Of a DNA stretch of 64,000 nt, positions 4,788 to 45,750 are shown one piece after another. This stretch comes from an uncultured Eubacteriales bacterium (GTDB taxonomy: Bacteria; Bacillota; Clostridia; TANB77; UBA1234), in assembly GCA_949283575.1 (NCBI GenBank), contig CASDSU010000028.1, positions 128,849-192,848 of the forward strand, given 5' to 3'. Numbering within the stretch: position 1 is the first letter of the stretch; the number at the start of each line of letters is the position of its first letter. The translations under genes and the position numbers were made by a program. The notes beneath the pieces are model-generated. The model was given only the letters and a program-made list of their open reading frames with translations, had not been told where the DNA came from and searched no databases.

Positions 4788-5585
4788 TTACGAAGCTTTC
4801 AACTCTACCATGTATACACTGTCAAATGACACATAAACAAATCCCGTTTCGACCTGAAACTTAAGCGCGCTAGATACAGACTCCTCTTGAATCCCCGTCA
4901 TTTCCTCTCTATATTTTTGATAAAAGAGAGGCATGACTTGAATCTTTGCAATCGCTTGCTCACGAGAAATCTTATTTGCATCCGCATACCTTCCAACCCA
5001 ATCAATAGGTTCCATCGTAATTTCACCTCTGAGCAGGGCCTGTGCAGCATACTGAGTTGCTCGAGAAGTCACTCGCTGAAAATAGATATCTTGTGTGATA
5101 TTCAGGAACGAAAATGCGCAAGTAACGTACCCCAGCTCACGCAACGTTTTGAGCAACGCACTCCTACTGTTAATGTGAAGCCATCCGCCATCAATCAGAA
5201 GATTTTCACCACTCTCTAGTCTCCTGCCAAACTCTCCAAATCCTAAAGAATTATTTAGAATGTTGGCATCAAAACACCGAATAACATTGGTTGTCAATAG
5301 CTCCTTAGCAGCACACTCATCCAGAGAAAGGAATTCAAACTCCGTATGAGTCTTAAGAAACTCTCTTGCATAAGTACTCTTACCGGTACAAGACTGGCCA
5401 AGAAGCACGATTGCATTCTTCCGTCCCTTGACAGGTTTGTACTCTTTGAGTAGCAACGGTTCCTTGGTTATGCCATCAAAGAAGAGATCGATTCCTTCCA
5501 AAATTGTTATCTGTTTACTCGCTGCCTTATGGTGGTTGGTCATTGCAGTCTCAAAGTTTCGTTCAAACTTGGTCTTCTTGCTCAT
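4788..5585 (-). CDS. P-loop NTPase (kinase-like fold; GQSCTGKST Walker A)
   Basis: Walker A GQSCTGKST. Start placed at MSKKTKFE with RBS GGAGGAG 6 nt upstream. Local GC about 45-48%, clearly above neighbours. Confidence 0.6.
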   Translation of the reverse strand: MSKKTKFERNFETAMTNHHKAASKQITILEGIDLFFDGITKEPLLLKEYKPVKGRKNAIVLLGQSCTGKSTYAREFLKTHTEFEFLSLDECAAKELLTTNVIRCFDANILNNSLGFGEFGRRLESGENLLIDGGWLHINSRSALLKTLRELGYVTCAFSFLNITQDIYFQRVTSRATQYAAQALLRGEITMEPIDWVGRYADANKISREQAIAKIQVMPLFYQKYREEMTGIQEESVSSALKFQVETGFVYVSFDSVYMVELKAS

Positions 5586-5746: not shown

Positions 5747-5775
5747 TTGACTTTTTTAAAAAAATACATTAGAAT
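5747..5775 (+). promoter_or_regulatory. sigma-A type promoter for the tRNA-His/tRNA-Gln operon
   Basis: TTGACT (5747-5752), 17-nt spacer, TAGAAT (5770-5775), about 20 nt before tRNA-His. Confidence 0.5.
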
Positions 5776-5794
5776 GTAACTTGCATTTGAGCAT

Positions 5795-5872
5795 GGTGGA
5801 TGTAGCTCAGTTGGTTAGAGCGCCAGGTTGTGGCCCTGGAGGTCGTGGGTTCGAGTCCCATCTTTCACCCCA
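5795..5872 (+). tRNA. tRNA-His (anticodon GTG) with G-1 and encoded CCA
   Basis: Hand-folded cloverleaf: G-1:C73, D-arm GCTC/GAGC, anticodon stem CCAGG/CCTGG, loop TTGTGGC, T-arm GTGGG-TTCGAGT-CCCAT, CCA at 5870-5872; one U-U mismatch in the acceptor stem. Confidence 0.85.
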
Positions 5873-5908
5873 CTTTTATAACTAACAAAAATGCAATAAA
5901 TTAAATAT

Positions 5909-5984
5909 TGGGCTGTAGCCAAGCGGTAAGGCACCAGACTTTGACTCTGGCATTTCGGCGGTTCGAATCCTCCCAGCCCAGCCA
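5909..5984 (+). tRNA. tRNA-Gln (anticodon TTG)
   Basis: Acceptor TGGGCTG/CAGCCCA, D-loop AGCGGTAA, anticodon stem CCAGA/TCTGG with loop CTTTGAC, T-loop GGTTCGAATCC, CCA encoded. Confidence 0.85.
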
Positions 5985-6042
5985 AATTTCATGATTTTTA
6001 AGAGAATTTTAGAAAACTTGTAAGAAACTTAAAAGTCATCAA

Positions 6043-6080
6043 ACCCAGCATTCGAGCTTATTTGGATGCTGGGTATTTTT
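6043..6080 (+). terminator. rho-independent terminator after the tRNA operon
   Basis: CCCAGCAT...ATGCTGGG stem followed by TATTTTTAT. Confidence 0.6.
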
Positions 6081-6181
6081 ATTCTCAGATTTTTTGAAGT
6101 TCTGAAAAGTATCGATTTCAAGTTACAAATTTAAGTTTCAGAAAAATTAGGTTCCAAAAGACTTTTAGGAAAGGAGAAAAA

Positions 6182-6742
6182 ATGGAAGCTAATTTCTATA
6201 AAATTAACGAATCCTTAGAAAATTCATTTTATCAAATCCCAGAAGAATTATTCAAAAACCCTATATATAAAGAAAAATTAGGCTTAGAAGCTAAAGTTTT
6301 ATATGCCTTTTTACTAAGCAGAATGCGATTATCTGCTCAGAATAATTGGATTGATGATGATGGGTATATCTATCTTATCTACAAACGTGTCGATGTTCAA
6401 AAGAAACTTAATCTATCAGATAAGACAGTTACAAAGGCATTCAAACAACTAAAAGAAGTCAAGTTAATACACGAAATAATCCAAGGAATTAATAAGCCTA
6501 ATATTATCTATTTAGCCAAAATAAAACACATGGATATGCCACAGAACTGGACTCGTAAAAATTACGAGCCCGGACACGGAAAAAATACGACTCCGAAGTC
6601 GGAAAATTTACGACCAATATATATAAATAAAGATAAAGAAAATAGATATAATATGCAAACTTCAAAATTTGACAATAGGTTTAGAGATAACAAAGGACAG
6701 TATGATGATTTAGATAAATATATTGAAAATTTTAAAGATTAA
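6182..6742 (+). CDS. replication initiator protein A, N-terminal domain family (RepA_N)
   Basis: LGLEAKVLYAFLLSRMRLS...W.DDDGYIYL motif typical of Firmicutes plasmid/ICE RepA_N; RBS GGAAAGGAG. Confidence 0.7.
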   Translation: MEANFYKINESLENSFYQIPEELFKNPIYKEKLGLEAKVLYAFLLSRMRLSAQNNWIDDDGYIYLIYKRVDVQKKLNLSDKTVTKAFKQLKEVKLIHEIIQGINKPNIIYLAKIKHMDMPQNWTRKNYEPGHGKNTTPKSENLRPIYINKDKENRYNMQTSKFDNRFRDNKGQYDDLDKYIENFKD

Positions 6743-6766
6743 TAAATAAAAAGGAGATGTCTTAAA

Positions 6767-7120
6767 ATGAAATTAGAATACTTAAAAAACGGAGATTATT
6801 ATATACCGAATATAGAATTAGGTTATGAAAATGTAAAGGTGAATTTAGGCAAATATGGAAGGCTAAGAGAAAAATATTTGAGAGAGCATAAACCTTCTTT
6901 ATTTGAGCATTTAAAGATGAGTGAAAGATTAATTCCTCATCTATCAAGTATAGATAAAGAAGCTAAAGCTTATGAAGCATTATTAATAAAACAATTTACT
7001 GAAAAGGAAAATGTTAATGAGAAATTGAAAGTAACAAATCAACTTGGGTGGGTAAAAAATATGAATTCAATTAAGCAAAGAGCCCAAGAAATTGTGTGCA
7101 ATGAAATGATTTATAATTAA
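6767..7120 (+). CDS. TnpV-like transposon-encoded protein
   Basis: KLEYLKNGDYYIP...G.YG.LR..YL..HKP...HL..ID..A...LKV.NQLGWVKNMN.I..RA.EIV resembles TnpV of Tn4451-type elements. Confidence 0.65.
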   Translation: MKLEYLKNGDYYIPNIELGYENVKVNLGKYGRLREKYLREHKPSLFEHLKMSERLIPHLSSIDKEAKAYEALLIKQFTEKENVNEKLKVTNQLGWVKNMNSIKQRAQEIVCNEMIYN

Positions 7121-7150
7121 AAATTCAACTATAGAAAAGAGGATGATTTT

Positions 7151-7474
7151 ATGCAAGAAAAAGGCTTATATGATTTAAGATTATGTGATTTCAATGAACT
7201 AATAAGTGAGGTAAAAGTAGCACTTAGAAACAAAAATAAAGAATATAAAAAGTTGCAAGACAAGTTAGAAAATATTATGGACAATCATCCAAATTTACAG
7301 ATGATTATGGAAGATGATACCGAGTTTAATTTAACAAAAACAGATTGTAAAATGCTTCAGAAATTATTTGAATTACATATAGAAATTCAAGCTTTGGAAG
7401 AACAAGAAATATTTTTCTTAGGTGGCAGAGAAGCTTACTATTATTTCAAAAATATTGGAATTTTAAAAGAATAA
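7151..7474 (+). CDS. hypothetical small helical protein of the mobilization module
   Basis: ORF with RBS AAGAGGATGA; position conserved between TnpV and MobC. Confidence 0.45.
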   Translation: MQEKGLYDLRLCDFNELISEVKVALRNKNKEYKKLQDKLENIMDNHPNLQMIMEDDTEFNLTKTDCKMLQKLFELHIEIQALEEQEIFFLGGREAYYYFKNIGILKE

Positions 7475-7479
7475 TTTAG

Positions 7480-7600
7480 AAGAAAATGCGGGTAAAAGCA
7501 GTGTTTCAAATGCGTTGAAAAATAAAAAGCAAGCAACGCATTTGTACTCCCGCACAAATACACTTGCATAGCTTTAGAATTAAAGCTATGTGATGGGAGA
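7480..7600 (+). promoter_or_regulatory. candidate origin of transfer (oriT) upstream of mobC
   Basis: Inverted repeats CAAATGCGTTG(7507-7517)/CAACGCATTTG(7534-7544), GCGGG/CCCGC arms, and palindrome TAGCTTTAGAATTAAAGCTA(7570-7589), directly upstream of MobC-relaxase. Confidence 0.4.
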
Positions 7601-7647
7601 ACCCAAGCCCCTTTTAATAAAAATTGTAAATGAAAGGAGTTAAAAAT

Positions 7648-7971
7648 ATGAGAAGAAGATCGATTAAAAAACAACTTTGGCTTAGTCAAACTGAAAATAA
7701 AATTTTGAAAGAAAAATCTAAAGTTACAGGACTAAATGAGTCCGAATTAATTCGTAGTTTTATAAAAGGTTATCGCATAAAAGAACAACCAACTGAAGAA
7801 ATAAAACAATTTCAAAAAGAGCTTTCTGGAATAGCAAATAATATAAATCAAATAGCAAAAATAGCAAACACATATCAGTTTGTAAAGCTAGATGATTTTA
7901 AATATATATCATCAAAACTTGCAGATTTTATTTTAAGATTTGAGAAGAAAATTTATTCAAGAGAGAAGTGA
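7648..7971 (+). CDS. mobC: MobC-family relaxosome accessory protein (ribbon-helix-helix)
   Basis: SELIRSFIKGY and GIANNINQIAK motifs; RBS AAAGGAG before ATG at 7648. Confidence 0.7.
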   Translation: MRRRSIKKQLWLSQTENKILKEKSKVTGLNESELIRSFIKGYRIKEQPTEEIKQFQKELSGIANNINQIAKIANTYQFVKLDDFKYISSKLADFILRFEKKIYSREK

Positions 7972-7977
7972 TTTAAA

Positions 7978-9276
7978 ATGGCTGTTATAAAAATTAAAAC
8001 TATAAAAAATAATTTAGAAGCCGTAGTAAACTATGCTCAAAATGGAGATAAAACCGAGAATGAAATATTAGTAACTGGAGTTAATTGTGTGCCACAAACT
8101 GCATATAGTCAAATGGCACTAACAAAGAAATTTTTTCATAAAGAAAGTGGTAGACAGGGTTATCATATTATTCAATCTTTTAATGGAAAAGAAGTTTCTC
8201 CAAACGAAGCCAATGAGCTTGGAACATTACTTGCAGAAGAATTATTTGGAGATAAATTTCAAGCTATAGTTTGTACTCATATAAACAAAGATAATATACA
8301 TAATCACATCGTTTTGAATTCTGTTTCATTTGTTGATGGAAGTAAACATCATAATTCAAAACTTGACATAGCATTAATAAAAGATAAGTCAGATGAGCTA
8401 TGCAAAGAGTATGAATTATCGGTAATCCAAACCTCAAAAGCAAGCAAAACCAATAAGACATATAAAAAAAGAATTTCAAAATACAATAGAAGTAATTCAA
8501 AGATGCTACAAGTGAAAGCTGACATTGATGATGCAATTGCTCAAAGTAGAAAAATGAGTGAATTTTATGATAATTTAAAAATCAAAGGTTATGAAACTTA
8601 CAAAAGAGGTATGTATCTTTCAGTAAAATTACCTTACTTTGCAAGGAATATTCGACTAGAAAGAGCTTTTGGAGAAGAATACTCACTTCATAACATTCAA
8701 GATAAAATTTATTATAGCGAAAAAACCGAAAATCAGAAAAATGGAATTAATAAGAAATATTATAGGAAAGTATATAAAGGACCTAAAATAGATAGCTTTA
8801 AGCTTAAATTTAGCCCATTTTATAGGTCATATGTTAGATGGCTTTACAAACTTGGAAAGTTACCACCTAAGATAGAATACGAAGAATTAACACCAGAATA
8901 TTTTAAGCAAAAAAGAGAAACACAAAATATTCTTGATGAAATTAGTTTTGTGGCTAGAAATAATATCAATAACATTCAAGATGTTCAAAATTGCGAAGAA
9001 TGGATTTCGGTTAAATTAACTAAAGTTAAAGGAGAGCGAGAAAATTTGTGGAGACAGTATAATAAGGCTAAATTACCAGAGAATAAAATTGAAATAAAAA
9101 TGAAAATTGATAGTAAAACTTGTGAAATTAATGCTTATAGCAATGAGCTAAAGATTTGTAGAAGGTTTATGTGGAGACGAGAAATACTTGGGAAAGAAAT
9201 AAGATTATTAAGAATTGAATTAGCAGAAAGTAAAAGAATAGTAAAAATGAAGAATTTATCACGTGAAAAATATTAA
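7978..9276 (+). CDS. MobA/VirD2-family relaxase (mobilization nuclease)
   Basis: N-terminal relaxase fold with HxxxDxxHxH metal motif (HINKDNIHNHIVLN), conserved Tyr region near the N-terminus, C-terminal coiled-coil. Confidence 0.8.
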   Translation: MAVIKIKTIKNNLEAVVNYAQNGDKTENEILVTGVNCVPQTAYSQMALTKKFFHKESGRQGYHIIQSFNGKEVSPNEANELGTLLAEELFGDKFQAIVCTHINKDNIHNHIVLNSVSFVDGSKHHNSKLDIALIKDKSDELCKEYELSVIQTSKASKTNKTYKKRISKYNRSNSKMLQVKADIDDAIAQSRKMSEFYDNLKIKGYETYKRGMYLSVKLPYFARNIRLERAFGEEYSLHNIQDKIYYSEKTENQKNGINKKYYRKVYKGPKIDSFKLKFSPFYRSYVRWLYKLGKLPPKIEYEELTPEYFKQKRETQNILDEISFVARNNINNIQDVQNCEEWISVKLTKVKGERENLWRQYNKAKLPENKIEIKMKIDSKTCEINAYSNELKICRRFMWRREILGKEIRLLRIELAESKRIVKMKNLSREKY

Positions 9277-9420
9277 ATATACAATTATAAATGAGACAAC
9301 AGAATCACGAAAAGATAGACTCATATTAAAAATATAATTTCAATAATTCTAAATACAGATTTGAAATAAAATGGTATTTATTTTATAATTCTGTTATAGA
9401 TAAATTGAGGAGGAAATATT

Positions 9421-9807
9421 ATGGATGAAAAATTTAATCAAGTGAAAAAATTAAATAAGATATCTAAAATTTTAACATTTATCATTGCAGGAGTATGGAT
9501 AATTGGTGGAATAATTGTATTTCAATTATATACTCTTTCTGATTTACAAATGGCATTTAAGGTTATAATAGATTTAATTATAAATAGTTTTAAAGGAAAA
9601 TTAAGTTTAGACGTCATATTAATTGCTTTAATGATAATAGATTTTATTGTTCTTTGTATTCAAACAAATAAATTAAAAGCTAATTGGAAAAAATTTATGA
9701 TAATTGAGTTGATAGTTAAAACATTAGTCTTATTTTACGTGGTAGGAGGATATATTTTATCTTTTTGGTATATGAATAGTTTTGTATTTGATGCATATGG
9801 AATATAA
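9421..9807 (+). CDS. small membrane protein (3-4 TM)
   Basis: RBS GAGGAGGAAA; hydrophobic helices. Confidence 0.5.
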   Translation: MDEKFNQVKKLNKISKILTFIIAGVWIIGGIIVFQLYTLSDLQMAFKVIIDLIINSFKGKLSLDVILIALMIIDFIVLCIQTNKLKANWKKFMIIELIVKTLVLFYVVGGYILSFWYMNSFVFDAYGI

Positions 9808-9859
9808 AATAAAAGGATACTTTCTTACTTGCACCAATTGTGCGAGTAAGAGTGATAAA

Positions 9860-9882
9860 GGTGCGACAAAAAATGTCGCACC
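9860..9882. repeat. perfect hairpin GGTGCGACA-AAAAA-TGTCGCACC; member of a local repeat family (other copies at about 12680-12705 and 13320-13345)
   Basis: 9-bp stem with A5 loop, preceded by ACCAATTGTGCGAGTA; a similar unit ACCAATGGTGCGAGTA plus GTACGACATTTTTCGTCGCAC lies at 12668-12705. Confidence 0.55.
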
Positions 9883-9927
9883 TTTGTCTTGCATCAACAG
9901 CACACTTTTTACATATTTTTTATCGGT

Positions 9928-10164
9928 TCACTTGTTCGGTTCTAGTATATTCCAATAACCTTTTCTATCAGAACCTATTCTTTCAATAATGTGTGTTTCT
10001 TTAAGTTTGCGTATATGATTTGTTATTGTACTTTTTCTAAATCCTGTTATTTCACATATTTCAACTTGTGTAATTTGAGGATTTTGATTCATTAGCTTAA
10101 TGATTTGAGAATCTATAATTTCTGTCTCTTTCTTCTGTCCATTTCTATTCACTTTCCAACACAT
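9928..10164 (-). pseudogene. orphan C-terminal winged-helix fragment, homologous to the HTH tail of the AlbA_2/HATPase_c_4 regulator at 13408..14871
   Basis: 78-aa ORF aligns to the C-terminus of the 487-aa protein (ILQFLADRDGAKNSEIANFIERSPSTTRKILAELKNKNII vs IIKLMNQNPQITQVEICEITGFRKSTITNHIRKLKETHII). It has no N-terminal domains and abuts the relaxase relic. Confidence 0.5.
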
Positions 10165-10180
10165 CTAAAATAGGTTGAAA

Positions 10181-10245
10181 ATAATGCTTATAGCAATGAG
10201 CTGAATATTTGTAGAAGGTTTATGTGGAGAAGAGAAATACTAAAA
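10181..10245 (+). repeat. relic of a second relaxase gene 3' end (about 63 bp, roughly 93% identical to 9128..9190)
   Basis: AATGCTTATAGCAATGAGCT[G]AA[T]ATTTGTAGAAGGTTTATGTGGAGA[A]GAGAAATACT matches the last codons of the relaxase at 7978..9276. Confidence 0.65.
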
Positions 10246-10396
10246 AAGAAACAAATATATTAAAAACACAAGAAATTTCTAAAGTCATTTTTAAAAGGAA
10301 AAAAGAAAAAGTACGATAATTATAAAAATGGCAAAGAAATTAAATCTCTGCCATTTCTTTATAACGAACTATTTTCACTCCTACTGATAATATTAA

Positions 10397-11533
10397 TTAC
10401 ATATTTTCAAAAAACAATTCATAAGTATTATCTGATTCATTTAAAAATTTTAATTCTACACACGAAAAATCCAACTCTTTTGGTATTTCAAAAACAACAT
10501 AAAATTGAGTAAGGTCTCCTTCGCAGTATTGCTTCTTTATTTCTCTTGGGATTATTGTTGCTCTAGTACTTCCTTCCAAAGCATTTTTTAAATCATAGGC
10601 TGAAACTGTAACTTCTGGTTTTACAGCAGAAAATGTTGATGTTGAATTAAACGGGAAATCTATATCAGTTAAATCTACATCAAATAATGCACAATACAAA
10701 TTTTTATTTTCATTTATTGTGTATTTAGGGAACAAACTTGTACCGCCATATCCTTCTGCAAAAGCTATATTATATTTACCAGCTTTTTCAAAAGCATTAT
10801 TATAATCTTCGATAATTTCAATAGCTGTGTTGCCACTATATATTTCTTTCATTTTTAAATGTAATGAACTCATTGAAATTTTATTATTTCCATTTTCATC
10901 AAGTCCAGTACCTGAGTGAAGATTAACAGTACCAGCTTGTCCTTTTAGGGCTGGTGTATCTGTATGAACCTTTGCTAAGGAAGCAAAACTTTCTTTTGGC
11001 AATTCTGGAATTTGAGTACTTGGTGTTATTCCTCTATACGTATCATCAAGTATTACAGAATTTGTGTTTCCATCCCATTTGATTTCTATATCAAACAAAT
11101 TTGAGATTGCACGTACAGGCAAATATGTAGTTCCTTGATAAGAAAGAGGATATACTACATTTTCGTTTACATCTTTAAAAGTTTGATACATTCCATCGTA
11201 TGAAACTCTTATTTTGTCATTTAATAGAACTTGAATATTTTCTGTAGGTTCAGCAATAAAATTTTCAATTGATTGCGCTGAAATTTTGTCTAATTCGCCT
11301 TCACCTAATTCTACAGCATTCAATTTTTGATTCCAATTAATTCTAATATTAAATATGCTAGAAATTGATCTTATTGGAAGATATGTAGTTCCTTCATAAG
11401 ATATAGGATAAACCTTCTGTCCACTTACATTTTTAAATTCTTGAATTTCATTATTATACAATATTTTCAATCCTTTGTTTAAAACTACATTAACATCTTG
11501 ACTTGCATATACGCAATTAGAGCAGAAAAACAT
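10397..11533 (-). CDS. secreted protein with two copper-amine-oxidase N-terminal-like (stalk) domains; probable true start upstream, disrupted by a T8 homopolymer
   Basis: Two repeats of Y.GTTYLP.R.IS..F...I.W. Removing one T from the run at 11553-11560 gives MKRIFLVISILAMFFCSNCVYA signal peptide in frame. Confidence 0.65.
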   Translation of the reverse strand: MFFCSNCVYASQDVNVVLNKGLKILYNNEIQEFKNVSGQKVYPISYEGTTYLPIRSISSIFNIRINWNQKLNAVELGEGELDKISAQSIENFIAEPTENIQVLLNDKIRVSYDGMYQTFKDVNENVVYPLSYQGTTYLPVRAISNLFDIEIKWDGNTNSVILDDTYRGITPSTQIPELPKESFASLAKVHTDTPALKGQAGTVNLHSGTGLDENGNNKISMSSLHLKMKEIYSGNTAIEIIEDYNNAFEKAGKYNIAFAEGYGGTSLFPKYTINENKNLYCALFDVDLTDIDFPFNSTSTFSAVKPEVTVSAYDLKNALEGSTRATIIPREIKKQYCEGDLTQFYVVFEIPKELDFSCVELKFLNESDNTYELFFENM

Positions 11534-11641
11534 TGCAAGTATCGAAATTACTAAAAAAAATTCTTTTCATATTTCATACCTCTTTTCTTTCGATTTGTTA
11601 ATTATATTATATCATTTTTAACTGTTACATTATAGAAAATT

Positions 11642-12508
11642 TTATTGTTTTAAGAATTCTTTACAAGCTTGATAAGAATATGTTACAAGATTTGCTAAAG
11701 ATTTATAATTCATTTCATAAAATGGTTTAACAAATTCGGTACTAATCTCTTTGCTGTTGTATGTTATAGATAAATGAGAGTATTTCTTAATAATTTTATC
11801 TAATTCTTCTTTTGATTTTAACTCATTTTCGTTAATTATAAATTTGCAATAAATTTTATATGTTGTTACTGGTGTACGTCGTATTTTTTTAGATACAATC
11901 TTAAATTCGAAGTAATTTCCATTACTATCTTTATAACCATTTTTATTTTCTAATTCTGAAATTTGTTTTCTTAAATTTCCAATAGCAAATTCTTCATCTG
12001 GAATAAATTTTTTTGAAGATTTTTTCTGTGTTTTTAATATATCCACTTGATTTTTCAGTTTTTTAATTTCTTCTCTTTTATTAAGACATTCGGTCAACTG
12101 ATATCTTTCAAATAAATATTCATCTAAATTATAATACCAAATACTTTTATAATAATCTGAAATTACAACTGTTGCTATGCCAACTCCGCAAGCAATTGGA
12201 AGTATAACTGCAATAATTATACTTAATACATTATTAATAGTTATTAAATTTATTATAAATGATATTAAAGATATAAATATAATTCCGAATACACCTAAAA
12301 ACACTTTGACTCTAGTTTCTTTTTTATTCTTTTCTTTCAATTTCTTGTATTCTTCATCTGAAATCTGTGTTATTTCCTTTATATCTTTATATCTTTTTCT
12401 GTAATCAATTCTTTTACCTATATCTAATCCTAATCCACTTCTAATCTCACTTGTTATTAATAAACCTATAAATATTATTATTAAATATATTATTGTTTTT
12501 AAGTTCAT
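11642..12508 (-). CDS. membrane protein with coiled-coil region (hypothetical)
   Basis: N-terminal TM, second TM pair, K/E-rich helix; RBS present. Confidence 0.5.
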   Translation of the reverse strand: MNLKTIIYLIIIFIGLLITSEIRSGLGLDIGKRIDYRKRYKDIKEITQISDEEYKKLKEKNKKETRVKVFLGVFGIIFISLISFIINLITINNVLSIIIAVILPIACGVGIATVVISDYYKSIWYYNLDEYLFERYQLTECLNKREEIKKLKNQVDILKTQKKSSKKFIPDEEFAIGNLRKQISELENKNGYKDSNGNYFEFKIVSKKIRRTPVTTYKIYCKFIINENELKSKEELDKIIKKYSHLSITYNSKEISTEFVKPFYEMNYKSLANLVTYSYQACKEFLKQ

Positions 12509-12724
12509 TTTTAAACTCCTTTATTTAAACTTCGTCAATCACTAATATATATTCTAAAATTATGTTATTTTCCATATAGCAACCATCCATTTTCGGCCGA
12601 GGTACATTTTTTAGTAATTATATGAGATATCTTGCAGTACAATTATTTATATATATTTCTCGTACCAATGGTGCGAGTATTGTACGACATTTTTCGTCGC
12701 ACATTTTATGAAATTATCTATGCA

Positions 12725-13333
12725 TTAACTTGATTTTAAACAATCTAATAATTCCATCCAACTTCTTTTGTCACATTCAAAACCATAATCTTCCGCATTT
12801 TCGAGTTCGAATATCATTTTTTCTTTTATCTCATTGGTTATTACCTCAACATTAGCAATAATAAAACTAAGAATTACACCTGTTATATATGTTTTTCTTC
12901 CTAAACCGTATTTTATTGCTTCTAGCATTAATAGTTCCAATTCATTGTTCGTAATGTTGATATCTATAACACCATCAAATTGTTTATCTTCAAATGATTG
13001 TTGCAGAGCTTTTTCTATCTTATTAGCAAAAGTAAGCCACTTCTCTTCATTATCTAAAGGTCCATAGAGTGGACTTGCGTTTCTTTCTTTGATATCTCTA
13101 ATAAAAATCATTTTCATTTTTTCTGACATATAATCAAGATTATCTATAACTATTTTCTGAAAAGTATCTAATTCAATATATTTAGCAGTATCTCTTAATT
13201 CGTTTCTTAATACACTAGCTAAAATTAATTCAAAATATAAATTTTTATTATTTATTTTCATAAAATCACCACTTTCTTGATTTATTATCTGTGAAATTTC
13301 CTGTGAAGTTATCTGTGCAGAATAATGCGACAA
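12725..13333 (-). CDS. hypothetical protein
   Basis: ORF with plausible internal start MKINNKN; no recognisable domain. Confidence 0.45.
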   Translation of the reverse strand: MSHYSAQITSQEISQIINQESGDFMKINNKNLYFELILASVLRNELRDTAKYIELDTFQKIVIDNLDYMSEKMKMIFIRDIKERNASPLYGPLDNEEKWLTFANKIEKALQQSFEDKQFDGVIDINITNNELELLMLEAIKYGLGRKTYITGVILSFIIANVEVITNEIKEKMIFELENAEDYGFECDKRSWMELLDCLKSS

Positions 13334-13344
13334 AAGTGCGACAT

Positions 13345-13413
13345 TACTCGCTCACTACTCGCTTTTACTCGCTCATTACTTGTTTCTACTCGCTCATTAC
13401 TCGCTTATTACAT
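13345..13413. repeat. tandem array of about 6.5 copies of a 10-11 bp unit TACTCGCT(C/T)(A/T)(C/T), helical-phase periodicity
   Basis: tactcgctcac|tactcgcttt|tactcgctcat|tacttgtttc|tactcgctcat|tactcgcttat|tacattc. Unit is the reverse complement of the GTGCGAGTA/GAGCGAGTA motif found at 9848 and 12676. Confidence 0.75.
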
Positions 13414-14871
13414 TCTTATTTTATATTTTCCTTTTGGGTCATTTTGAGATATTCCGTTCCAATAAATTATATTTTTATTTTTTAATTCAGCTAAAATTTT
13501 TCTTGTTGTAGAAGGGCTTCTTTCAATAAAATTTGCGATTTCTGAGTTTTTGGCACCGTCTCTATCTGCTAAAAATTGTAAAATTTTTCTTTCTGTTTCA
13601 TTGAAATTGTTCCAATTATCACTTATTGCACTATTCTTCTTTAAATCATCTTCTTGTCTTGCGTTTCTAGATAAATAATTATTTTTTAAAGTCAAAATAA
13701 ATATATCACTACTTGTTACTTTAAATTCGGGTTCTTCTAAAAAATATTTTTTCATTTCTCTATAAATTCTTGGTATTCCTTCGCTTAGTTCTCTTACAAC
13801 ACCAAATTCAGTTAAAGTTCTGGCTATAACACGATTTCTAGAGTATCTTTCTGTTTGTAAATTCTCTAAAGTTACTAATCCAGCAAGTTTTCCAGGACTT
13901 CTAATTTCCATTCTGTTGTTATAAATAAAAATCTTTATATATTCTCCACCCATTACATAATTTCTATGTGTAACAGCATTTGTAACACCTTCAACATAAG
14001 TGAATTCAGGGTATTCAGGTATAGTTTCAAATTCCCCTTCTGAATTTAAGTGTGTAGAATCTCTTAACTGTGTATGAACAAATTCTGGAACTTCCTTTAT
14101 TGCTTTATATAGTGGCAAGGCAAAAGTTTTATCTTTAATAATATTTAAATCTTTTCCGGGTAACATTTCATTTCCATCAAATTTTACAATTCTAATTCTG
14201 GCTGTAGGCAAATAAATTGATGGATCTTGAGCAAATAATAGTACGCCTGCTTTAGTTAATAATTTTTGTCCATTCACAATACTTTCTCTTAAAAAACCTC
14301 TAGCTCTTAAGACTTCTTCATCAGATTTATCTTCAGCGTCTATTTTTTGTTTATATATGCTTAAAACTTCCTTATCTATTATATCAATTGTAGCATAAGG
14401 AACCAACTCATCTTCAAATGAAACATCGGGTCTATCCATTTTCAATACTTGGATTTGCTCATCTGTTAATTTGATAGTTGAGTCACCTCGTCTTAAATAC
14501 ACTTCATCTTTTTGATTTCTAATTAATTTATTTAAACTAATCGCAATATGAAGTAACAAAACAGTATCATCTTCATTTTTTACATTTACTACGCTTAATT
14601 CTTCATATTTGATTTCTGGTTCTGCATTTAAATATTGAACACTTTTTCTAAATTGATTTAACTTATCTGGACAACTATTAAATCCAACAATCTCTCCATT
14701 GTTAGAAATTCCTACAGCAAGTATTCCTCCATCTGCATTTGCCATACCTGCAATATGATTTGCAAGGTCTAGTTCACTTATACTTGAACTTTTTCTATCA
14801 AAATTTTGATTTTCTCTGTTATTACATAAATATTCTAATGTAATAGCAGGATTTATTTTAGATGAAATCAT
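13408..14871 (-). CDS. AlbA_2 (Schlafen-like) / HATPase_c_4 / winged-helix putative ATP-binding regulator (RecG-C-terminal-like family)
   Basis: Architecture typical of the 'putative DNA-binding / ATP-dependent DNA helicase RecG C-terminal' family; C-terminal wHTH; operonic with the upstream gene (14-nt gap). Confidence 0.6.
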   Translation of the reverse strand: MISSKINPAITLEYLCNNRENQNFDRKSSSISELDLANHIAGMANADGGILAVGISNNGEIVGFNSCPDKLNQFRKSVQYLNAEPEIKYEELSVVNVKNEDDTVLLLHIAISLNKLIRNQKDEVYLRRGDSTIKLTDEQIQVLKMDRPDVSFEDELVPYATIDIIDKEVLSIYKQKIDAEDKSDEEVLRARGFLRESIVNGQKLLTKAGVLLFAQDPSIYLPTARIRIVKFDGNEMLPGKDLNIIKDKTFALPLYKAIKEVPEFVHTQLRDSTHLNSEGEFETIPEYPEFTYVEGVTNAVTHRNYVMGGEYIKIFIYNNRMEIRSPGKLAGLVTLENLQTERYSRNRVIARTLTEFGVVRELSEGIPRIYREMKKYFLEEPEFKVTSSDIFILTLKNNYLSRNARQEDDLKKNSAISDNWNNFNETERKILQFLADRDGAKNSEIANFIERSPSTTRKILAELKNKNIIYWNGISQNDPKGKYKIRM

Positions 14872-14885
14872 AAGTTACCTCCTAA

Positions 14886-15815
14886 TCACTTATTTTTTCT
14901 TTTTCTAGTATTAGCTATATTAGCCTTATTTCTACATGTTGTTGTATCATATTCAGCTTTTAAATTTTCAGCTATAAATGGTTTTCCACAATATTTACAT
15001 AGCCTAACTTCTGTTCTGCCATTTGTTTCGTTTAATAATAACATTGCATTAATTGCAGCTCTCAACGAATGAAAATTCCACTGAAATTTTATTTTTCCAT
15101 TTTCTATACCATATTTAAAATTAATTTTATATACTTCTTGGTTAAGTATCGTTTCGGCATAAAATTCTTTTAAATCAGGTTCTAAGTTACCATATAAATA
15201 AGTACCAATTACTCCTTTAGTGACATATACGCTTTCAGCAAAATCTATAATTTCAGATATTGGCTCTGCATAATTCTTTGAAAAAATAAAATCATTTAAA
15301 CGGTCACCTTCAACTTGTATAAGATTAGCGTCTAAACCAGAATTTCGGTGCAAATCATTAACTGTCATTTTTTTAGACCAATCAATCTTTTTATCAGGCC
15401 AAAAATATCTTTGCTCAAAATCTATTATTGATAATGAACTATCTAATTTTGAAGAATATGAGATTTCATTATCTTTCTCTAAAAAGTCAAAATTTTTAGG
15501 AAAATATCTAAAATTGCCTAACAACCCATATTTTGATACAAAATCTAACACAACTTTTTGAAATTCTTTTGTTTTACTCTTTGCTTCATAAGTTAAATTA
15601 GTATTGGTAAATTTTATAGTTTCATCTCCATTTACCATTTCGCCTATAATCATTAAATCCTTTAAAATATCATTTTTAATTTCAAAAGGGTCATAGGTAA
15701 TAGGCACTGCGTTTTCATCAGGTAAAACATAAAGAATATTATTATTTTTTTCAATTTTATATTTACTATACTTACACCATTTTGACATAAATTCGATTTT
15801 TTCTTCTTTTATCAT
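14886..15815 (-). CDS. hypothetical protein with C-terminal zinc-ribbon-like motif (CKYCGKPF...C) and basic tail
   Basis: ORF with RBS; CxxC...C at C-terminus followed by RKRKNK; no known domain recognised. Confidence 0.5.
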   Translation of the reverse strand: MIKEEKIEFMSKWCKYSKYKIEKNNNILYVLPDENAVPITYDPFEIKNDILKDLMIIGEMVNGDETIKFTNTNLTYEAKSKTKEFQKVVLDFVSKYGLLGNFRYFPKNFDFLEKDNEISYSSKLDSSLSIIDFEQRYFWPDKKIDWSKKMTVNDLHRNSGLDANLIQVEGDRLNDFIFSKNYAEPISEIIDFAESVYVTKGVIGTYLYGNLEPDLKEFYAETILNQEVYKINFKYGIENGKIKFQWNFHSLRAAINAMLLLNETNGRTEVRLCKYCGKPFIAENLKAEYDTTTCRNKANIANTRKRKNK

Positions 15816-16018
15816 TTCATCACCTCAAAAAAATTCATAAAAACACAAGAAAAATCTTGACTTATTTCGAATGATAATATATATTTGAAATAAGTTAGAA
15901 ACTATAATATTTCTAACACATTATAGTTTGTTTCTAAGATATATTTAAATTATATATCAAAAGTATTACAAAGTCAAATATATCTAAAGTAAAAAATGAT
16001 GAAAGGAGGGATGAACAC

Positions 16019-16222
16019 ATGAGAGATAAAGCTTTAGAATCAAAACCAATGCCAGTACTGTACTCAACAGATGATGTATGCAAAATGTTTCATATCAGTA
16101 GGCTTACTTGTCTAAACCTATTTCGCAGAAATGACTTTCCAGCTCAAAAGTTTGGACGAGCCTACAAAGTGGAAGCAAATGCACTAAATGAATATCTTAG
16201 CAAAAGACATATCTTGGCATAA
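16019..16222 (+). CDS. xis: excisionase-family DNA-binding protein (Xis, MerR-like HTH)
   Basis: 67 aa, small basic HTH protein immediately upstream of the integrase; RBS AAAGGAGGGATG. Confidence 0.65.
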   Translation: MRDKALESKPMPVLYSTDDVCKMFHISRLTCLNLFRRNDFPAQKFGRAYKVEANALNEYLSKRHILA

Positions 16223-16362
16223 AAAGAAAGAAGACTTAGAAAATGGCGTTTCTAAATCTTCAACACGAACCAGGGAATGTCCCAAGCTCTAACCTATGAG
16301 AAGATTATAACACAATAAAGTAATAGTTTTCAAGACATTCCCTTAAATTTTAAGAGGGATCT

Positions 16363-17778
16363 ATGAAAAAACTTATCGAAGGACGCGACTATTCAGTCAA
16401 TAAGTTCGTAACAAAAGATAAAAGAATTAGCTCTAATAGAAATATATGTCCTACTTGCAAAGATTGCAGCCATAAAAAACTATGTAGCAACAGAGCAACT
16501 CTATACACAATGAAGAAATGCGATAAATGTAGAGAATGCTTAGATAACGACAATTGTGATAAATATTATATCTATGTTAGATATAAAGCCGAAATCTTGA
16601 ATTTAGGGCATAATGAAATAACAGGAGAGCAAATAAGAAAACAATTCAGTGGAAAAACTAAAGAAGAAGCAGTTCAAAATTTATATAAGGCCTACGATGA
16701 AGTAATCAATAATAAGTCCAAAGAAAAAGAGACAAAAATCATTGAAGTATCAATAGTTAGCATAGCAACATCTCTTGAAGAAAAGAAACTCAAGAAAGGA
16801 CTTATTAAATCAAATGGATACAAAACGAATGCAGACACAATAAATAGAATTGGTAAAAACAAATTTGCAAATATTCCAATTCAAAATGTGACTAAAAAGC
16901 AAATTGAAGATTTCTTAGAAGAAGAAAGAAAAAACTTTAATTCTACTATCGGAAAGGATTTCAGAATTCTTAAAGGTGCATATAAAGAGGCACATAGAAA
17001 AGGTTTAATCAAAGAAAATTACTTTGACTCTGATGATCCAATAGAAAAGCCAAAAAGTCATAAGCAAGAAAAGAAAGTTGTAGCTTTAACAGCAAAAGAA
17101 CAATATCTTTTAGAAAGATATATCAATGAAAATTATTCAAAATATAACAACATCTTATTGCTATGTTTATACACAGGAATGCGAATTGGAGAAGTGTTAT
17201 CTTTAAGTCCTGATGCTATAACTTATGACAGTAAAAATGGCACTATCAATATAACAAGAACTTTAACAAGAGATAAAAATGGCAAAGTTATTATAGGAGA
17301 TGTGCCTAAAACTAAGAATGGTATTAGAAGAGTTGACCTAAGAGAAAATTCTAAAAGAGTTCTAGATAATGCACTTAAAGATATGAAGCCTAATCCTTAC
17401 AATGTAATATTTGCACAAGAAAATGGAGAGCTATACAAAGAAAGTATAATTAACAATGCTTTTAAAAGAATTGCAAAGAACGCAGGAATCAAAGTTATAA
17501 CTACCAAGAAGAAAAAGAAGAATGGAAAAACAGTAAATCTAAAATCTAGCACTGTAAATACACATATGCTTAGGCACACCTTTGCAACAAGATGTATCGA
17601 GGCAGGAGTTCCACTTCATATTCTTCAAAAAGTATTAGGTCATTCAAAATTCAAACAACTATTGATACATACGGAGATATCTACGATTACTTCAGGCAAA
17701 AAGAAATGGAAAAGTATGATGAATATATGGCAGAAATACACAATTCATTTAAGAAAGAATGCAAAAAATAAAATATAA
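16363..17778 (+). CDS. int: tyrosine-type site-specific integrase with Cys-rich N-terminal domain; C-terminus frameshifted at an A4 run (17646-17649) before the catalytic Tyr
   Basis: Conserved HMLRHTFATR and VLGHS motifs. The canonical ending ...IQTTIDTYGDIYDYFRQKEMEKYDEYM... is only in the +1 frame, recovered by inserting one A. Confidence 0.75.
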   Translation: MKKLIEGRDYSVNKFVTKDKRISSNRNICPTCKDCSHKKLCSNRATLYTMKKCDKCRECLDNDNCDKYYIYVRYKAEILNLGHNEITGEQIRKQFSGKTKEEAVQNLYKAYDEVINNKSKEKETKIIEVSIVSIATSLEEKKLKKGLIKSNGYKTNADTINRIGKNKFANIPIQNVTKKQIEDFLEEERKNFNSTIGKDFRILKGAYKEAHRKGLIKENYFDSDDPIEKPKSHKQEKKVVALTAKEQYLLERYINENYSKYNNILLLCLYTGMRIGEVLSLSPDAITYDSKNGTINITRTLTRDKNGKVIIGDVPKTKNGIRRVDLRENSKRVLDNALKDMKPNPYNVIFAQENGELYKESIINNAFKRIAKNAGIKVITTKKKKKNGKTVNLKSSTVNTHMLRHTFATRCIEAGVPLHILQKVLGHSKFKQLLIHTEISTITSGKKKWKSMMNIWQKYTIHLRKNAKNKI

Positions 17779-18381
17779 AAGTCAAACTAAATATTTCTGG
17801 AACTTAAGTTCCAAATAAGCATAAAATGCGAAAGACTTGAAATGATTTACGTGTTTTTACAAAAAAAGATTGGTGGTGAAATCACGTGATTACAATGCGA
17901 AAAAGCATAACAAATTTAAGAGATAGCAAAAAAGAGTTTATTTTAGATTGTAAGATTAGAAATCTAAATGTAGAAACAGACGCATTTACAATTCATCTAT
18001 TGCCTGATGATAAAATGAGACCGTTTTCTAATAAATACTAAATATAAAAAAGGACAAGAGCCCGGAAGAAGACTCATTGTCCTTTGCTATTTCTTAAAAA
18101 TTCTCTTGTGATTATATTGCAATTTTCTTAAATTTAAACCCAATCGCATTTTTTCCTTATTTGTAAGATTAAAAGCGTTGCTAATATATCCTTTTTAATC
18201 TCCACATTATAATCATCTAAATTTCTTGCTTTTTTCATCTATTTCCAAAAATACAAAAAATACATTGTAATAAATAACAAACTATATTTTATTACATTTT
18301 CTAGCATTAACTTTATTTCTTTTTTTAAATATTTTTTAAACTTTCTTTTAAATACGGTGTCATCCTCAATTTAAATCATCT

Positions 18382-18696: not shown

Positions 18697-21600
18697 CTAA
18701 TCTAAATCTTCTGGTAATATATTTACAAGTGTATCCTTATCCATTTCTGTCATCATAGAAAGTCTCAACGCCTGATTATTTAACGATCTTTCAAATACAT
18801 TTCTAACATATCTACCATTACCAAATCTCACATCCTGCTTTGCTACTGCAAGTATCATTTTTAACTTTTCTTTCGCTTCTTTTGTCAAATTATATCCATT
18901 TTTTTGATACATTTTATCAGCAATAACCATTAGTTCATCTACTGTATAATCTTCAAATTCTATTACATTTGGGAACCTAGACATAAGTCCCGAATTAACA
19001 TCTAAAAATTCAGTCATCTCTTTACTGTATCCTGCAAGTATTACTACAAGTTTATCACGATTGTCATCCATTAATTTTATTAATGTGTCAATTGCTTCTT
19101 TTCCGAAATCACTATTTCCTCCTTGAGATAACGCATAAGCTTCATCAATAAATAGCACACCATTAAAAGCTTCTTTTACTTTTTCAGTTGTCTTCATAGC
19201 TGTTTGCCCAACGTAGCCAGCAACAAGACCAGCTCTATCTGTTTCAACTAATTTGTCAGTCGAAATAACCCCAAGTTTGTATAGCATATTTGCAACAGCT
19301 CTAGCCATCATGGTTTTTCCTGTACCTGGATTTCCTTTAAAAATCATGTGAAGTGATTGTTCATCATTTACGATTAGTCCCATTTTCTTACGCTCATTCA
19401 TGATTTTTATTCTAGCAGCAAGCATTCTAATGTATTGTTTTACAGATTCTAATCCAATTATGCTATCAAAAATTTGTTCATAATCATATTCACTATTTTC
19501 AGTTTCGTATTTCTTGCCTACATCTTCTGGCAAAATAATATTAATATCATTTAATGCTACATCTTCTAGCATCGCAATTCTTGTACTTTGATTTCTAACA
19601 ATTTCATCAATAAGATTCCTAACCATTCTTCCATTTCCAGAATAAGTAGCTGCTGTTTTCTTCATAAATTCTAATTTTTCAGCGGCAACAGCTCTTGCTT
19701 CATCTGTTATCTGGAACCCTCTCGAGGCAATCATTTTATCAAAAATTTGTGCAAGCTCATCAGCTGTATAATCTGGGAAATCAAGTTTAAGTGGAAATCT
19801 AGATTCTAAACCAGAATTTGCTTTTAAGAAATCACCCATTTCTTTTTCATAGCCTGCAAGTATTACTAAAATTTCTCCTCTATGATCTTCCATAAGTTTT
19901 ATTAATGTGTCAATTGCTTCTCTTCCGAAATCACCATCTCCGCCTTGTGATAACGAATATGCTTCATCAATAAATAATACTCCACCTAGTGCACTATTAA
20001 ACACATCAGTTGTTTTTGGAGCGGTTTGTCCAACATATTCAGCAACTAAATCTGCTCTCGCAACTTCAACAATATGACCTTGTCTTAAAAATCCCATTTC
20101 TTTAAGCATTTGTGAAACAAGCCTTGCTACTGTTGTTTTACCAGTTCCAGGATTTCCTATAAAAATCATATTCAAAGACTGAGTAACATCGGTTGTAACT
20201 CCAAGACTTCTTCTCTTTTCTTGAGCTTTCAAAATATTATATTGATTTCTTAAAAAGTCTTTAACATTATCAAGACCAATTATTTTCGAAAGCGCTTCTT
20301 CTAAATCAAAATTTTCTTTCTTTTCAAGTTCAAAATCTACAAGCTTAATTAATGAATAATCGACTTCATTCTCTTTAACGATTCTAACTGCTTGATTTGC
20401 CATCGCAGATTCCATTACATTTCTAACAAGACGACCGTTTCCATTAGGATTTTTTCCTGTATAAATTTTCGATTCAAAAAATTCTATAAGTGGCTCATAA
20501 CAATTAACATCAATCTTATATTCATTTTGCTTTGCAATATTTTCAGCAATTCGATACATCTCATCAGCGGTATAATCTTTAAAATCAATTATATTTTGAA
20601 ACCTTGATTTAAGTCCGGTTGCTAAGCGAAGCATATCATCCATTTCATCTTTATATCCAGCAAGAATTACAACTAAATTATCTCTATTATCTTCAATCAT
20701 TTTAAGCAAAGTCTCAATTGCTTCTTTTCCATAATCATCCGTTTTTGAATTCAGCAACGAATAAGCTTCGTCAATAAACAGAACTCCTCCAAAAGCTGAT
20801 GCAACGCATTCCCTTGTCATTTGAGCAGTTTCACCAGGATGACTTCCAACTAAATTTGCTCTACTTACTTCTACAAAATGTCCTTTTTCTAGCATCCCAA
20901 GTGCACTCAAATACTCAGCAACAATTCTTGCAATAGTAGTTTTACCTGTACCAGGATTACCTGTAAAAATCATATTAAGCGGAAGTGGCGCAACTCTCAT
21001 TCCCGCACGCTCCCTCATTTTTTGAGCAGTTATATTATCCTCTAAACGATATAAATAATCTTTGACTTCATTAAGTCCAATTATCGAATTAAGTTTAGCT
21101 TTAACAATAGTAAGTCGATTCGAAACCCTCGAATCAGCTGCATTATCTAGCAATAATTTTTCTCCATTAGACTCTATAAAAATTTGCTCATCTTCAACAC
21201 CAATTATATATTGTTGTTTATTACTGATTTTTCCTTTCAATTTATACTCAGAAATTGGTCTAAAAATCCTGTGATCAATTAACAAATTAACACCATTAAT
21301 TCCAGTCGCACTAGAATATGTATTTCTCAAATATTCTTCAAGTGAAAACATATAATCAATATTAATATCTAAATCCTTTTTACATTTTTTCTTAAAATGT
21401 TCTATAAGAGAATTTATCATTTGATTAATTTCTTCTTCAGTAAAATCATTCGCGGTAATAACGTCCTTAATATTTTCTGCAATATCAAGTCCTATTACAT
21501 CTTCAAATTCATGCTCAGGTTTATTTGAAATGAAAACAAAATATTCTCCATTTGTTTTTATCTCAAGAACACCCTTAGGAGTATTAATTTCTATTCTTCC

Positions 21601-45330: not shown

Positions 45331-45750
45331 GTTATTCTTCTCCTTTTCTTCATCTTCATAGGGGACCAGGGACATTGGGTGTCTTGCGACGTTCAACTTT
45401 CAGTGATTTCTCACCTCCTTGTACGTCACGGTCGGTCGTTACGGTGCTCTGCAGTTACTATATGTCAATCGTTATGTCTTCTATCCGTCGATAAAAAACA
45501 AACGAGAATTTTCCAGGGACCATCTCGATGAAACATAAACAGGCATTCAATTACAGATACATTTTACCACAAAACTGTCAATTTTTCAATAGTTTTACAT
45601 AATAAGTAACATAAGCCATACTTATTATCTTTTGTAAAAATATGTAAATTTTTTCTTTTAGATATTCCCCCCATTTTTATCTTCAATATACTTATTTTGT
45701 TTGATTTTTACAGATACTATTTATATAATGTTTCTAGGAGGTTGATTAAC

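Follow-up and report, generated by a model that had tools for sequence, protein, structure and literature searches.

A helically phased 10–11-bp repeat array beside a prokaryotic Schlafen gene in the cargo of an integrative mobilizable element

Centromere-like and operator arrays are exemplified by parC of plasmid R1, with 11-bp iterons for ParR, by tubC, with 12-bp repeats for the winged-helix protein TubR, and by sopC, a set of 43-bp repeats directly downstream of sopB. Contingency loci include the 7-bp repeats upstream of hmw in Haemophilus and the 12-bp TAEL repeats in HsdS of EcoR124, and ToxIN-type systems carry ∼34–45-nt repeats upstream of the toxin gene, with a terminator between the two and a folded antitoxin RNA. 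The locus described here lies in a 64,000-nt stretch (hereafter the window) of contig CASDSU010000028.1 (positions 128,849–192,848, forward strand) and consists of a 10–11-bp tandem array directly following the gene for a 487-aa prokaryotic Schlafen protein, a pairing that recurs among homologues of this gene and is apparently undescribed. An earlier note on this DNA had assigned three intergenic sites to a single repeat family, proposed as an operator or iteron system or a set of recombination sites; all three sites were found where it had placed them, and all three lie within the cargo of a ∼12-kb integrative mobilizable element beside tRNA-His and tRNA-Gln.

Beginning at the Schlafen stop codon, the array (13342–13411, minus strand) comprises 6.5 units, each a GCGAGTA core plus a 3–4-nt spacer. 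Tandem Repeats Finder (TRF) reported 6.5 copies of period 11 at these coordinates, with a period-21 row scoring higher (3.2 copies, score 99). The cores, at minus-strand positions 13398, 13387, 13377 (a degenerate ACAAGTA), 13366, 13356, and 13345, are spaced strictly 11/10/11/10/11 bp apart, giving a mean of 10.5 bp and a 21-bp superperiod; both results confirm the orientation (opposite, i.e., minus strand), 6.5 iterations, and 10–11-bp spacing described previously. Two inverted units (TGTCGCAC and TGTCGCAT on the minus strand, at 13336–13343 and 13325–13332), themselves 11 bp apart, close the array on the side of the following gene, here called gene X, and a second short tandem repeat of the TTCACAGATAA type (12 bp × 2.8, 13284–13317, minus strand) occupies part of the gap from the array to the gene X start. 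In the related contigs L001–L004 and L009 the array is kept with whole-unit (11-bp) insertions or deletions; L001 and L009 also keep the second tandem repeat and lack one of the two inverted units. Read in frame past the double stop, the array yields SNERV-type heptads.

In the window as a whole, GCGAGTA occurs eight times against 2.29 expected, a count reached by none of 100 shuffles, and ACCAATKGTGCGAGTA, allowing three or fewer mismatches, gave five matches against 0.57 expected. Seven of the eight GCGAGTA copies fall inside the element (the other is at 5516), and by this count the motif is confined to the element within the window. A role at the RNA level is not apparent: the array RNA is unstructured (folding z of +1.4 and +0.3 relative to shuffles) and an Rfam search matched only the two tRNAs.

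The gene that precedes the array (13408–14871, minus strand) encodes the candidate array binder. By Pfam, its 487-aa product consists of AlbA_2 (PF04326; residues 20–135, E = 5.8e-16), HATPase_c_4 (309–389, 3e-20), and then a C-terminal winged helix, HTH_24 (424–469, 7.6e-7), and PADLOC matched it as pAgo-associated Schlafen-type. This domain order is exactly that of the pSlfn-HisKinase-HTH architecture, which is the second most common among prokaryotic Schlafens, at 19.2% of 5,930 proteins (PMC13056530). Bacterial Schlafens have recently been shown to be anti-phage tRNA nucleases; anti-phage activity and tRNA cleavage are known only for other architectures, the HTH-bearing class not having been picked for testing (PMC13056530). 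The main text of that paper makes no mention of tandem repeats, repeats, intergenic, or operon. A literature search by Pfam names and accessions returned no paper on such arrays, its coverage being incomplete and the absence therefore no proof of novelty.

In all four of the closest homologues found, the stop codon is directly followed by a 10–11-bp array, whose unit differs from one homologue to the next. The nearest, on metagenome contig L230, is 77% identical and has a chromosomal setting beside ispG, ispH, and a sortase gene; an inverted unit comes right after its stop, followed by two ATGAGCGGGTT units 21 bp apart, and a hairpin with 27-nt arms is formed of two inverted and two direct units, 11 bp apart. 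The next-closest homologues (39–40% identity, n = 3) were obtained by tblastn against plasmid records. In S. dysgalactiae (NZ_CP044103), 20 copies of a 10-bp unit (TAGGATACAG) follow the stop and end 11 nt before a ResIII/DEAD helicase gene; in S. respiraculi (NZ_CP022681), 15.6 copies of a 10-bp unit (TTTATTGTAG) start at the stop codon; and in F. vincentii (NZ_CP084075), CTAGTA units (11 bp × 3.6) lie between hsdM-Schlafen and hsdS. The recognition helix STTRK and the left half of the unit (ATGAGCG) are common to the window and L230, whereas the other three array-bearing homologues have different recognition helices and unrelated units. The 487-aa protein is encoded among defence-type genes, and homologues are found within type I restriction operons.

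Among more distant homologues (22–30% identity), repeats take other positions, either upstream or within the DNA for the linker that precedes the winged helix. The Butyrivibrio pCY360 homologue has an 11-bp array (TTGAAGT cores) immediately upstream of its start codon, and in-frame 12- or 21-bp linker repeats precede the winged helix in homologues from two P. distasonis plasmids, in an F. vincentii paralogue, and in M. arginini and Phocaeicola; the P. distasonis repeat, ATGAGCGGGTAA × 4.5 inside the ORF (open reading frame), encodes an (ERVN)4 linker and is nearly the unit of the window. The F. vincentii paralogue (L244) has AAACTACCA tandemly repeated both upstream (475–503) and in linker-coding DNA (1943–1972), and M. 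arginini (L245) likewise has 12-bp repeats in both places, as separate tracts. The period is 10, 11, or alternating 11/10 in the non-coding arrays, and 12 or 21 in the repeats within coding DNA.

In total, a repeat is present at the winged-helix end in all of the closest homologues found and at ∼12 of 20 loci overall. Repeats of period 9–12 with at least three copies occur about once per 20–30 kb in the window and the homologue loci, and the linkage to the winged-helix end is, by our estimate, far beyond chance. A scan of GTDB genomes for three GCGAGTA units returned 81 loci, all of them unrelated and microsatellite-like, mostly in high-GC genomes, and none near a Schlafen homologue; as a negative control, no homologue of the Schlafen proteins was found at these 81 loci or at viral loci with GCGAGTA or hairpin look-alikes. 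These GTDB microsatellites (L010–L090) are perfect 10–11-bp repeats, many of which start at or near the GAG-TAG/TAA end of a gene.

Changes in copy number were seen in a second Schlafen gene type, of which the window retains only a remnant. The 78-aa winged helix-turn-helix (wHTH) ORF at 9928–10164 (minus strand), adjoining the first hairpin site, is not a regulator gene but the leftover of a second AlbA_2-HATPase_c_4-wHTH gene type, being its C-terminal winged helix cut at the 10-bp linker repeat (ACAGAAATGG). This second type shares only 27% identity with the 487-aa protein; it is intact at 490 aa in L102–L104 but broken in two in L091 (429 + 70 aa) and in L092/L093 (317 + 70 aa) (coordinates 12553–14025 in L102 and 8751–10213 in L091). 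The linker unit ACAGAAATGG has three copies in L102, where the gene is intact, and two copies in the near-identical L091 and in L092; with two copies, a frameshift detaches the winged helix from the protein. Copy-number polymorphism among close relatives thus takes the form of three versus two linker units here and of whole-unit differences between the array of the window and those of L001/L009.

Gene X (12725–13261, minus strand) encodes a 178-aa, all-helical protein that belongs to no family and has no recognisable DNA-binding fold. The array lies upstream of gene X in every setting found for its closest homologues (86–98% identity), and no sigma-70-like promoter was found between the array and the gene X start; a 43%-identical homologue has no array. 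Contigs L001–L004 and L009 retain, at 90–98% identity, the hairpins and gene X together with the array and the 3′ terminus of the gene for the 309-aa protein; their downstream modules differ, and the Schlafen ORF has been swapped precisely for a DUF1016/YhcG nuclease ORF. Homology with L001 begins at the first array unit (13400), stops within the second hairpin H (12696), and restarts at the first. Such comparisons indicate that the cargo is a mosaic.

The other two sites proved different in kind, so that the three do not form one uniform family as had been proposed. Each is a ∼50-bp hairpin unit (9825–9885 and 12656–12703) made of related 9–11-bp units, and both are related to the repeats of the second Schlafen gene type, whose 78-aa remnant adjoins site 1. 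The single hairpin per site reported in the earlier note, hereafter H, is present, but it is not single, since an adjoining 23–25-bp palindrome, P, had been overlooked. At site 1, P (TTACTTGCAC-CAATT-GTGCGAGTAA, 9825–9849, plus strand) lies 18 nt past the orf128 stop, and H (AAAGGTGCGACA-AAAAA-TGTCGCACCTTT, 9857–9885, plus strand), which has a T-rich tail, closes the conserved left backbone with its 29 bp: the sister element L102 is homologous up to 9885, the final base of this hairpin. At site 2, P is imperfect (TTTCTCGTACC-AAT-GGTGCGAGTAT, 12656–12680, plus strand), and H (TGTGCGACG-AAAAA-TGTCGTACA on the minus strand, 12681–12703) lies 22 nt past the gene X stop; this second H is likewise imperfect, with two A.C mismatches on the plus strand that are G.U pairs on the minus strand. 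The loops were correctly given as A5 versus T5.

Variants of P at the site after orf128 or an equivalent junction were obtained from L102 (TTACTCGCACC-ATT-GGTGCGAGTAA), L096/L106 (ATACTTGCACC-AAT-GGTGCAAGTAT), and L001 (AAAAAACTCGTACC-ATT-GGTACGAGTTTTTT, flanked by A6 and T6). Across these variants and the two P copies of the window, 4 of 11 pairs changed on both sides and 94.5% of cells remained paired, a result equalled by 2 of 500 shuffles; slid controls collapsed, and the pairing intermediates are U.G on the orf128 sense strand. RNA folding of P+H, relative to shuffles, gave z of −7 to −10 on both strands. T-rich tails follow H1 (TTTGTCTT) and the L102 H (TTTTGATATTT), whereas P is tailless except in L001, with its A6/T6 flanks. 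Because of the compensatory base changes and the T-rich tails, sites 1 and 2 look like terminators, and P and H are most likely terminator-type stem-loops; a terminator scan called neither hairpin, because the stems absorb part of the T-run.

P and H are unusual in that both derive from a single 11-bp unit (GGTRCGA + 4 nt), arranged ← → → → ←, and the hairpins are located at backbone/cargo and module junctions. L091 and L102 carry additional direct copies of the arm (TGTCGCACC TTT GTCGCACC TTT GTCGTACC), located 130 nt past the 490-type gene and beyond the terminator of that gene. In viral sequences, a scan for the exact H stem gave >120 matches, nearly all of them unrelated phage hairpins and one a true homologue (L146), so the 9-bp stem is not diagnostic; a scan for GTCGCACC-TTT-GTCGCACC gave four matches, at chance level apart from L146. 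L146 (IMGVR_UViG_3300050581_000174, 12083–12245) carries a Mu-like prophage (Mu transposase, Ner/CII-like, HTH_3); ∼100 bp past its genes on the repressor side, close to where apparent host DNA begins, a 50-nt stretch is homologous (86%) to the hairpin-plus-direct-units site. The element shares nothing else with L146; the units might conceivably be end sites for a Mu-type transposase.

The array is tentatively read as a set of helically phased binding sites for the winged helix of the adjacent protein itself, with unstable copy number, an explanation favoured here although held with somewhat less than even confidence. The array would be a cis-acting DNA element of the Schlafen (AlbA_2)-GHKL ATPase-winged-helix gene directly upstream, and its GCGAGTA cores, which recur on the same face of the DNA at each helical turn, would be sites for the C-terminal winged helix, with several protomers loading side by side beside their own gene. 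From there the loaded protein could regulate the following gene (gene X here, a restriction helicase or hsdS in other genomes), through its expression or through read-through into it, and/or could keep the nuclease on self DNA; slippage would make the copy number of the array unstable, and the dose of sites would vary with it. The P+H pairs are another use of related 11-bp units, as base-paired stem-loops most likely terminating the mob operon and cargo genes, and they double as short repeats where cargo modules have been exchanged. The Schlafen winged helix is the best candidate for the binder: of the proteins proposed in the earlier note, the AlbA_2/wHTH protein, named there first, is the one to which the comparative data point, and the same-position arrays in all four closest homologues support the suggestion that the array behaves as a cis element linked to one of the element's DNA-binding proteins. 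Also in favour are the helical period of the non-coding arrays, the recognition helix and half-unit that the window has in common with L230, and the lower number of changes in core than in spacer positions, both within the array (2 of 42 versus ∼6 of 23) and between the window and L001/L009 (1 of ∼35 versus ∼7 of 15). A further, more doubtful possibility is that the array is an integral and so far unnoticed cis component of Schlafen-GHKL-winged-helix genes, at which the nuclease-ATPase would be parked or regulated, with slippage in the repeats on either side of the winged-helix module (of array copies, or by frameshift in the linker) switching between DNA-tethered and free forms in a phase-variable immunity.

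Several observations weigh against binding by the winged helix. The array and gene X stand behind the DUF1016/YhcG gene in L001–L004 and L009, short contigs on which no Schlafen gene is present, so that the array can survive where its putative binder is not encoded in cis. In P. distasonis the homologue nearly has the unit of the window though its recognition helix differs; common descent of the repeat DNA accounts better for this than co-variation of helix and unit does. The perfect 15–20-copy streptococcal arrays resemble fresh products of slippage more than operators under selection, and seven homologues have no array (Azospirillum, Arcobacter, Chlorohelix, Acetoanaerobium, a faecal phage contig, and the actinophage genes gp38 of Gordonia phage Nymphadora and gp31 of mycobacteriophage Squirty). 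Finally, the counts of core and spacer changes come from very few sequences, and their register is ambiguous.

The arrays could instead be contingency repeats with no dedicated binder, i.e., hypermutable tracts around the winged-helix end that act through copy number only, by frameshift where coding and by altered spacing, read-through, or translation of the next gene where non-coding, with phase-variable defence as the outcome. This is possible but doubtful, and is compatible with binding rather than exclusive of it. The difference between three and two ACAGAAATGG copies, which separates the intact gene of L102 from the split genes of L091/L092 (429/317 aa + 70-aa winged helix), speaks for it, as do the whole-unit differences between the window and L001/L009, the perfection and 15–20-copy length of the streptococcal arrays, the in-frame 12- or 21-bp linker repeats of five other homologues, and the location of the genes in type I restriction loci beside a PsrA invertase, a known phase-variable setting. 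However, the array of the window is imperfect and old, its cores conserved and its spacers diverged, which pure slippage does not predict; slippage needs neither a 10–11-bp period nor inverted end units, and for the non-coding arrays the sequence shows no effect on expression. Alternatively, P and H could be intrinsic terminators of the usual kind, with the array arising neutrally by slippage from one hairpin arm. The pairing covariation of P and the T-rich tails agree with this, exact H-type stems recur in many unrelated phage contigs and so are generic, and the scan tool missed the hairpins only because their stems absorb the T-run; yet the conserved cores and the same-position arrays with unrelated units in the four closest homologues, from four other organisms, would be unexplained, and the array is very unlikely to be such a by-product.

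Two further explanations assign the repeats to recombination or to RNA. As recombination joints, the units would act as site-specific sites or short homologies for the swapping of cargo modules, with arrays and hairpins promoting cassette exchange. In favour of this, the edges of homology with L001 lie at the array (13400) and within H2 (12696), with homology resuming at H1, the backbone homology of L102 stops exactly at the end of H1 (9885), the DUF1016-for-Schlafen swap in L001/L009 is precise, the wHTH remnant is cut at the 10-bp linker repeat, and the 50-nt hairpin-plus-units homologue of L146 lies near the edge of a Mu-like prophage. The breakpoints at 14877, 9944, and 16001 carry no motif, however, and the 3 of ∼7 mosaic breakpoints that do fall in repeats are not significant by our estimate, because repeats fill about one-fifth of the intergenic DNA; any short intergenic repeat would be expected to do as much. 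Moreover, the palindrome spacer is 3–5 nt rather than the 6–8 nt of tyrosine-recombinase core sites, integron-type and Xer-type features are absent, no dedicated recombinase is linked to the repeats, the element's own integrase acts at the tRNA end, and the streptococcal and Fusobacterium arrays are not at obvious module junctions; this explanation is considered unlikely. Rather improbable, too, is an RNA-level element, in which repeated GCGAGUA in the 3′ untranslated or intercistronic RNA would be bound or cut by the Schlafen RNase domain, in the manner of a type III antitoxin or a translational operator. Schlafen domains are tRNA-cutting RNases (PMC13056530), all units of the array are in the sense orientation, the S. 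dysgalactiae array stops 11 nt short of the next start codon, and the array is probably part of the mRNA, since no promoter-like site lies between it and gene X. But its RNA lacks structure, its 10–11-nt units are far below the 34–45 nt of ToxI-type repeats, it lies downstream rather than upstream of the nuclease gene, the Butyrivibrio array lies upstream of its gene, the inverted end units would be antisense, and a winged helix suggests double-stranded DNA.

Other candidates were rejected. The earlier note had also offered RepA_N as a binder, which does not hold up: arrays stand beside homologous Schlafen genes at loci without RepA_N, and the array lies 6.6 kb from repA (6182–6742), which has its own 23-bp × 2.9 repeats. 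An origin of transfer (oriT) was set aside because the usual location, upstream of mobC (7489–7600), has inverted repeats of its own, with only a vague resemblance to the units (GTACTCCCGCAC versus TACTCGCAC). Similarity to Spo0A boxes (TGTCGAA) is weak at a conserved position and was dropped. GGTGCGAGTAA resembles the E. coli XerC arm (Xer/dif), but the spacer length does not fit; more generally, Xer/dif or integron attC sites are contradicted by the 3–5-nt spacer of P, the lack of a GTTRRRY core, and a sole recombinase that is a phage-type integrase at the tRNA end. A common binder in the form of the 309-aa protein's zinc-finger tail is contradicted by its absence from the L102 cargo, and gene X, as a binder, is all-helical with no recognisable DNA-binding fold and has an arrayless homologue at 43% identity.

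By comparison with the sister element L102/L091, the backbone of the element spans 5747–9885 and 16001–17845. The left backbone genes (RepA_N, TnpV, DUF6664, MobC/NikA, relaxase, and orf128) occupy 6182–9807 and the right backbone genes (Xis and a tyrosine integrase) 16019–17778; tRNA-His and tRNA-Gln (5796–5984, within 5747–6121) flank the left end of the element. The minus-strand cargo encodes, in order, the 309-aa protein, the 487-aa AlbA_2-HATPase_c_4-wHTH protein, gene X, a 288-aa membrane protein, a 378-aa Cu_amine_oxidN1 protein, and the 78-aa wHTH ORF; blastn of the region against plasmids and phages gave no match. In L096/L106 the element survives as a remnant without 6122–9328 (repA to relaxase), and from L001 the entire mob/rep backbone is missing, so that decayed derivatives of the element evidently circulate. 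Within the RepA_N gene, a 23-bp × 2.9 tandem repeat (GGACTCGGAAAAATTACGACCCC, 6549–6615) presumably represents the origin repeats of the replication protein itself, as in RepA_N replicons. Upstream of mobC, 7489–7600 contains the inverted repeats AAATGCGTTG...CAACGCATTT, CATAGCTTTA-GAAT-TAAAGCTATG, and GCGGGTA...TACTCCCGC, and is likely the oriT of the element.

Beside the wHTH remnant, at 10176–10266 (plus strand), lies a relic of the relaxase 3′ end, of which 66 nt (10176–10241) duplicate 9123–9188 at 94% identity; it is the scar of a recombination between two related elements. The 309-aa protein (gene 14886–15815) ends in a zinc-finger-like, basic tail of ∼75 aa (RLCKYCGKPF...TTTCRNKANIANTRKRK), which recurs at ∼90% identity as a separate 64–75-aa ORF in L001 (2657–2884) and L092 (456–650) and is another shuffled module. 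Just beyond the integrase end of the element, 18697–22593 encodes a 1298-aa protein with three AAA+ modules (PADLOC IetA/TRIP13-like matches), which is kept in L096, where the element is decayed. Farther away, coding-type tandem repeats at 43474–43849 and 44093–44418 (99 bp × 3.8 at 97%, with 78-bp, 36-bp, and 6-bp arrays) lie inside overlapping long ORFs on both strands (43225–45531), in a stretch of 42–48% GC against 26–35% for the window.

Candidate HTH sites beside the gene offer a testable handle on the regulation or self-tethering of these nucleases, and the 10-bp linker repeats illustrate a slippage route by which the HTH may be switched on and off. For annotation, the 78-aa "regulator" is better recorded as a gene remnant, and the motif should not be recorded as an iteron system of the element's replication protein.

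Among known systems, ToxIN resembles this locus in having a tandem array beside an RNase-family gene in a defence setting, but the present array has a 10–11-nt unit, is downstream and unfolded, and has no terminator between itself and the gene. Contingency loci share the copy-number change between near-identical elements, the domain-detaching frameshift, and the association with restriction loci, whereas the array of the window is imperfect and non-coding, with conserved cores, a helical period, and inverted end units. P and H resemble Rho-independent terminators in their GC-rich 9–15-bp stems, short loops, T-rich tails after H, compensatory changes, and position at convergent gene ends, and differ in that two hairpins in tandem derive from one 11-bp unit, with additional direct arm copies (L091/L102) and reuse at several module junctions. 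The array is also like parC, tubC, and sopC in being a helically phased set of tandem direct repeats that adjoins the gene of its presumed binder and could carry a protein filament, and its placement after the gene recalls sopB-sopC. Unlike partition arrays, it has no cognate nucleoside triphosphatase (ParA, ParM, or TubZ) among the genes of the element, its loci belong to chromosomes, prophages, or mobilizable-element cargo and not to replicons needing segregation, and its candidate binder is a 487-aa nuclease-ATPase fusion.

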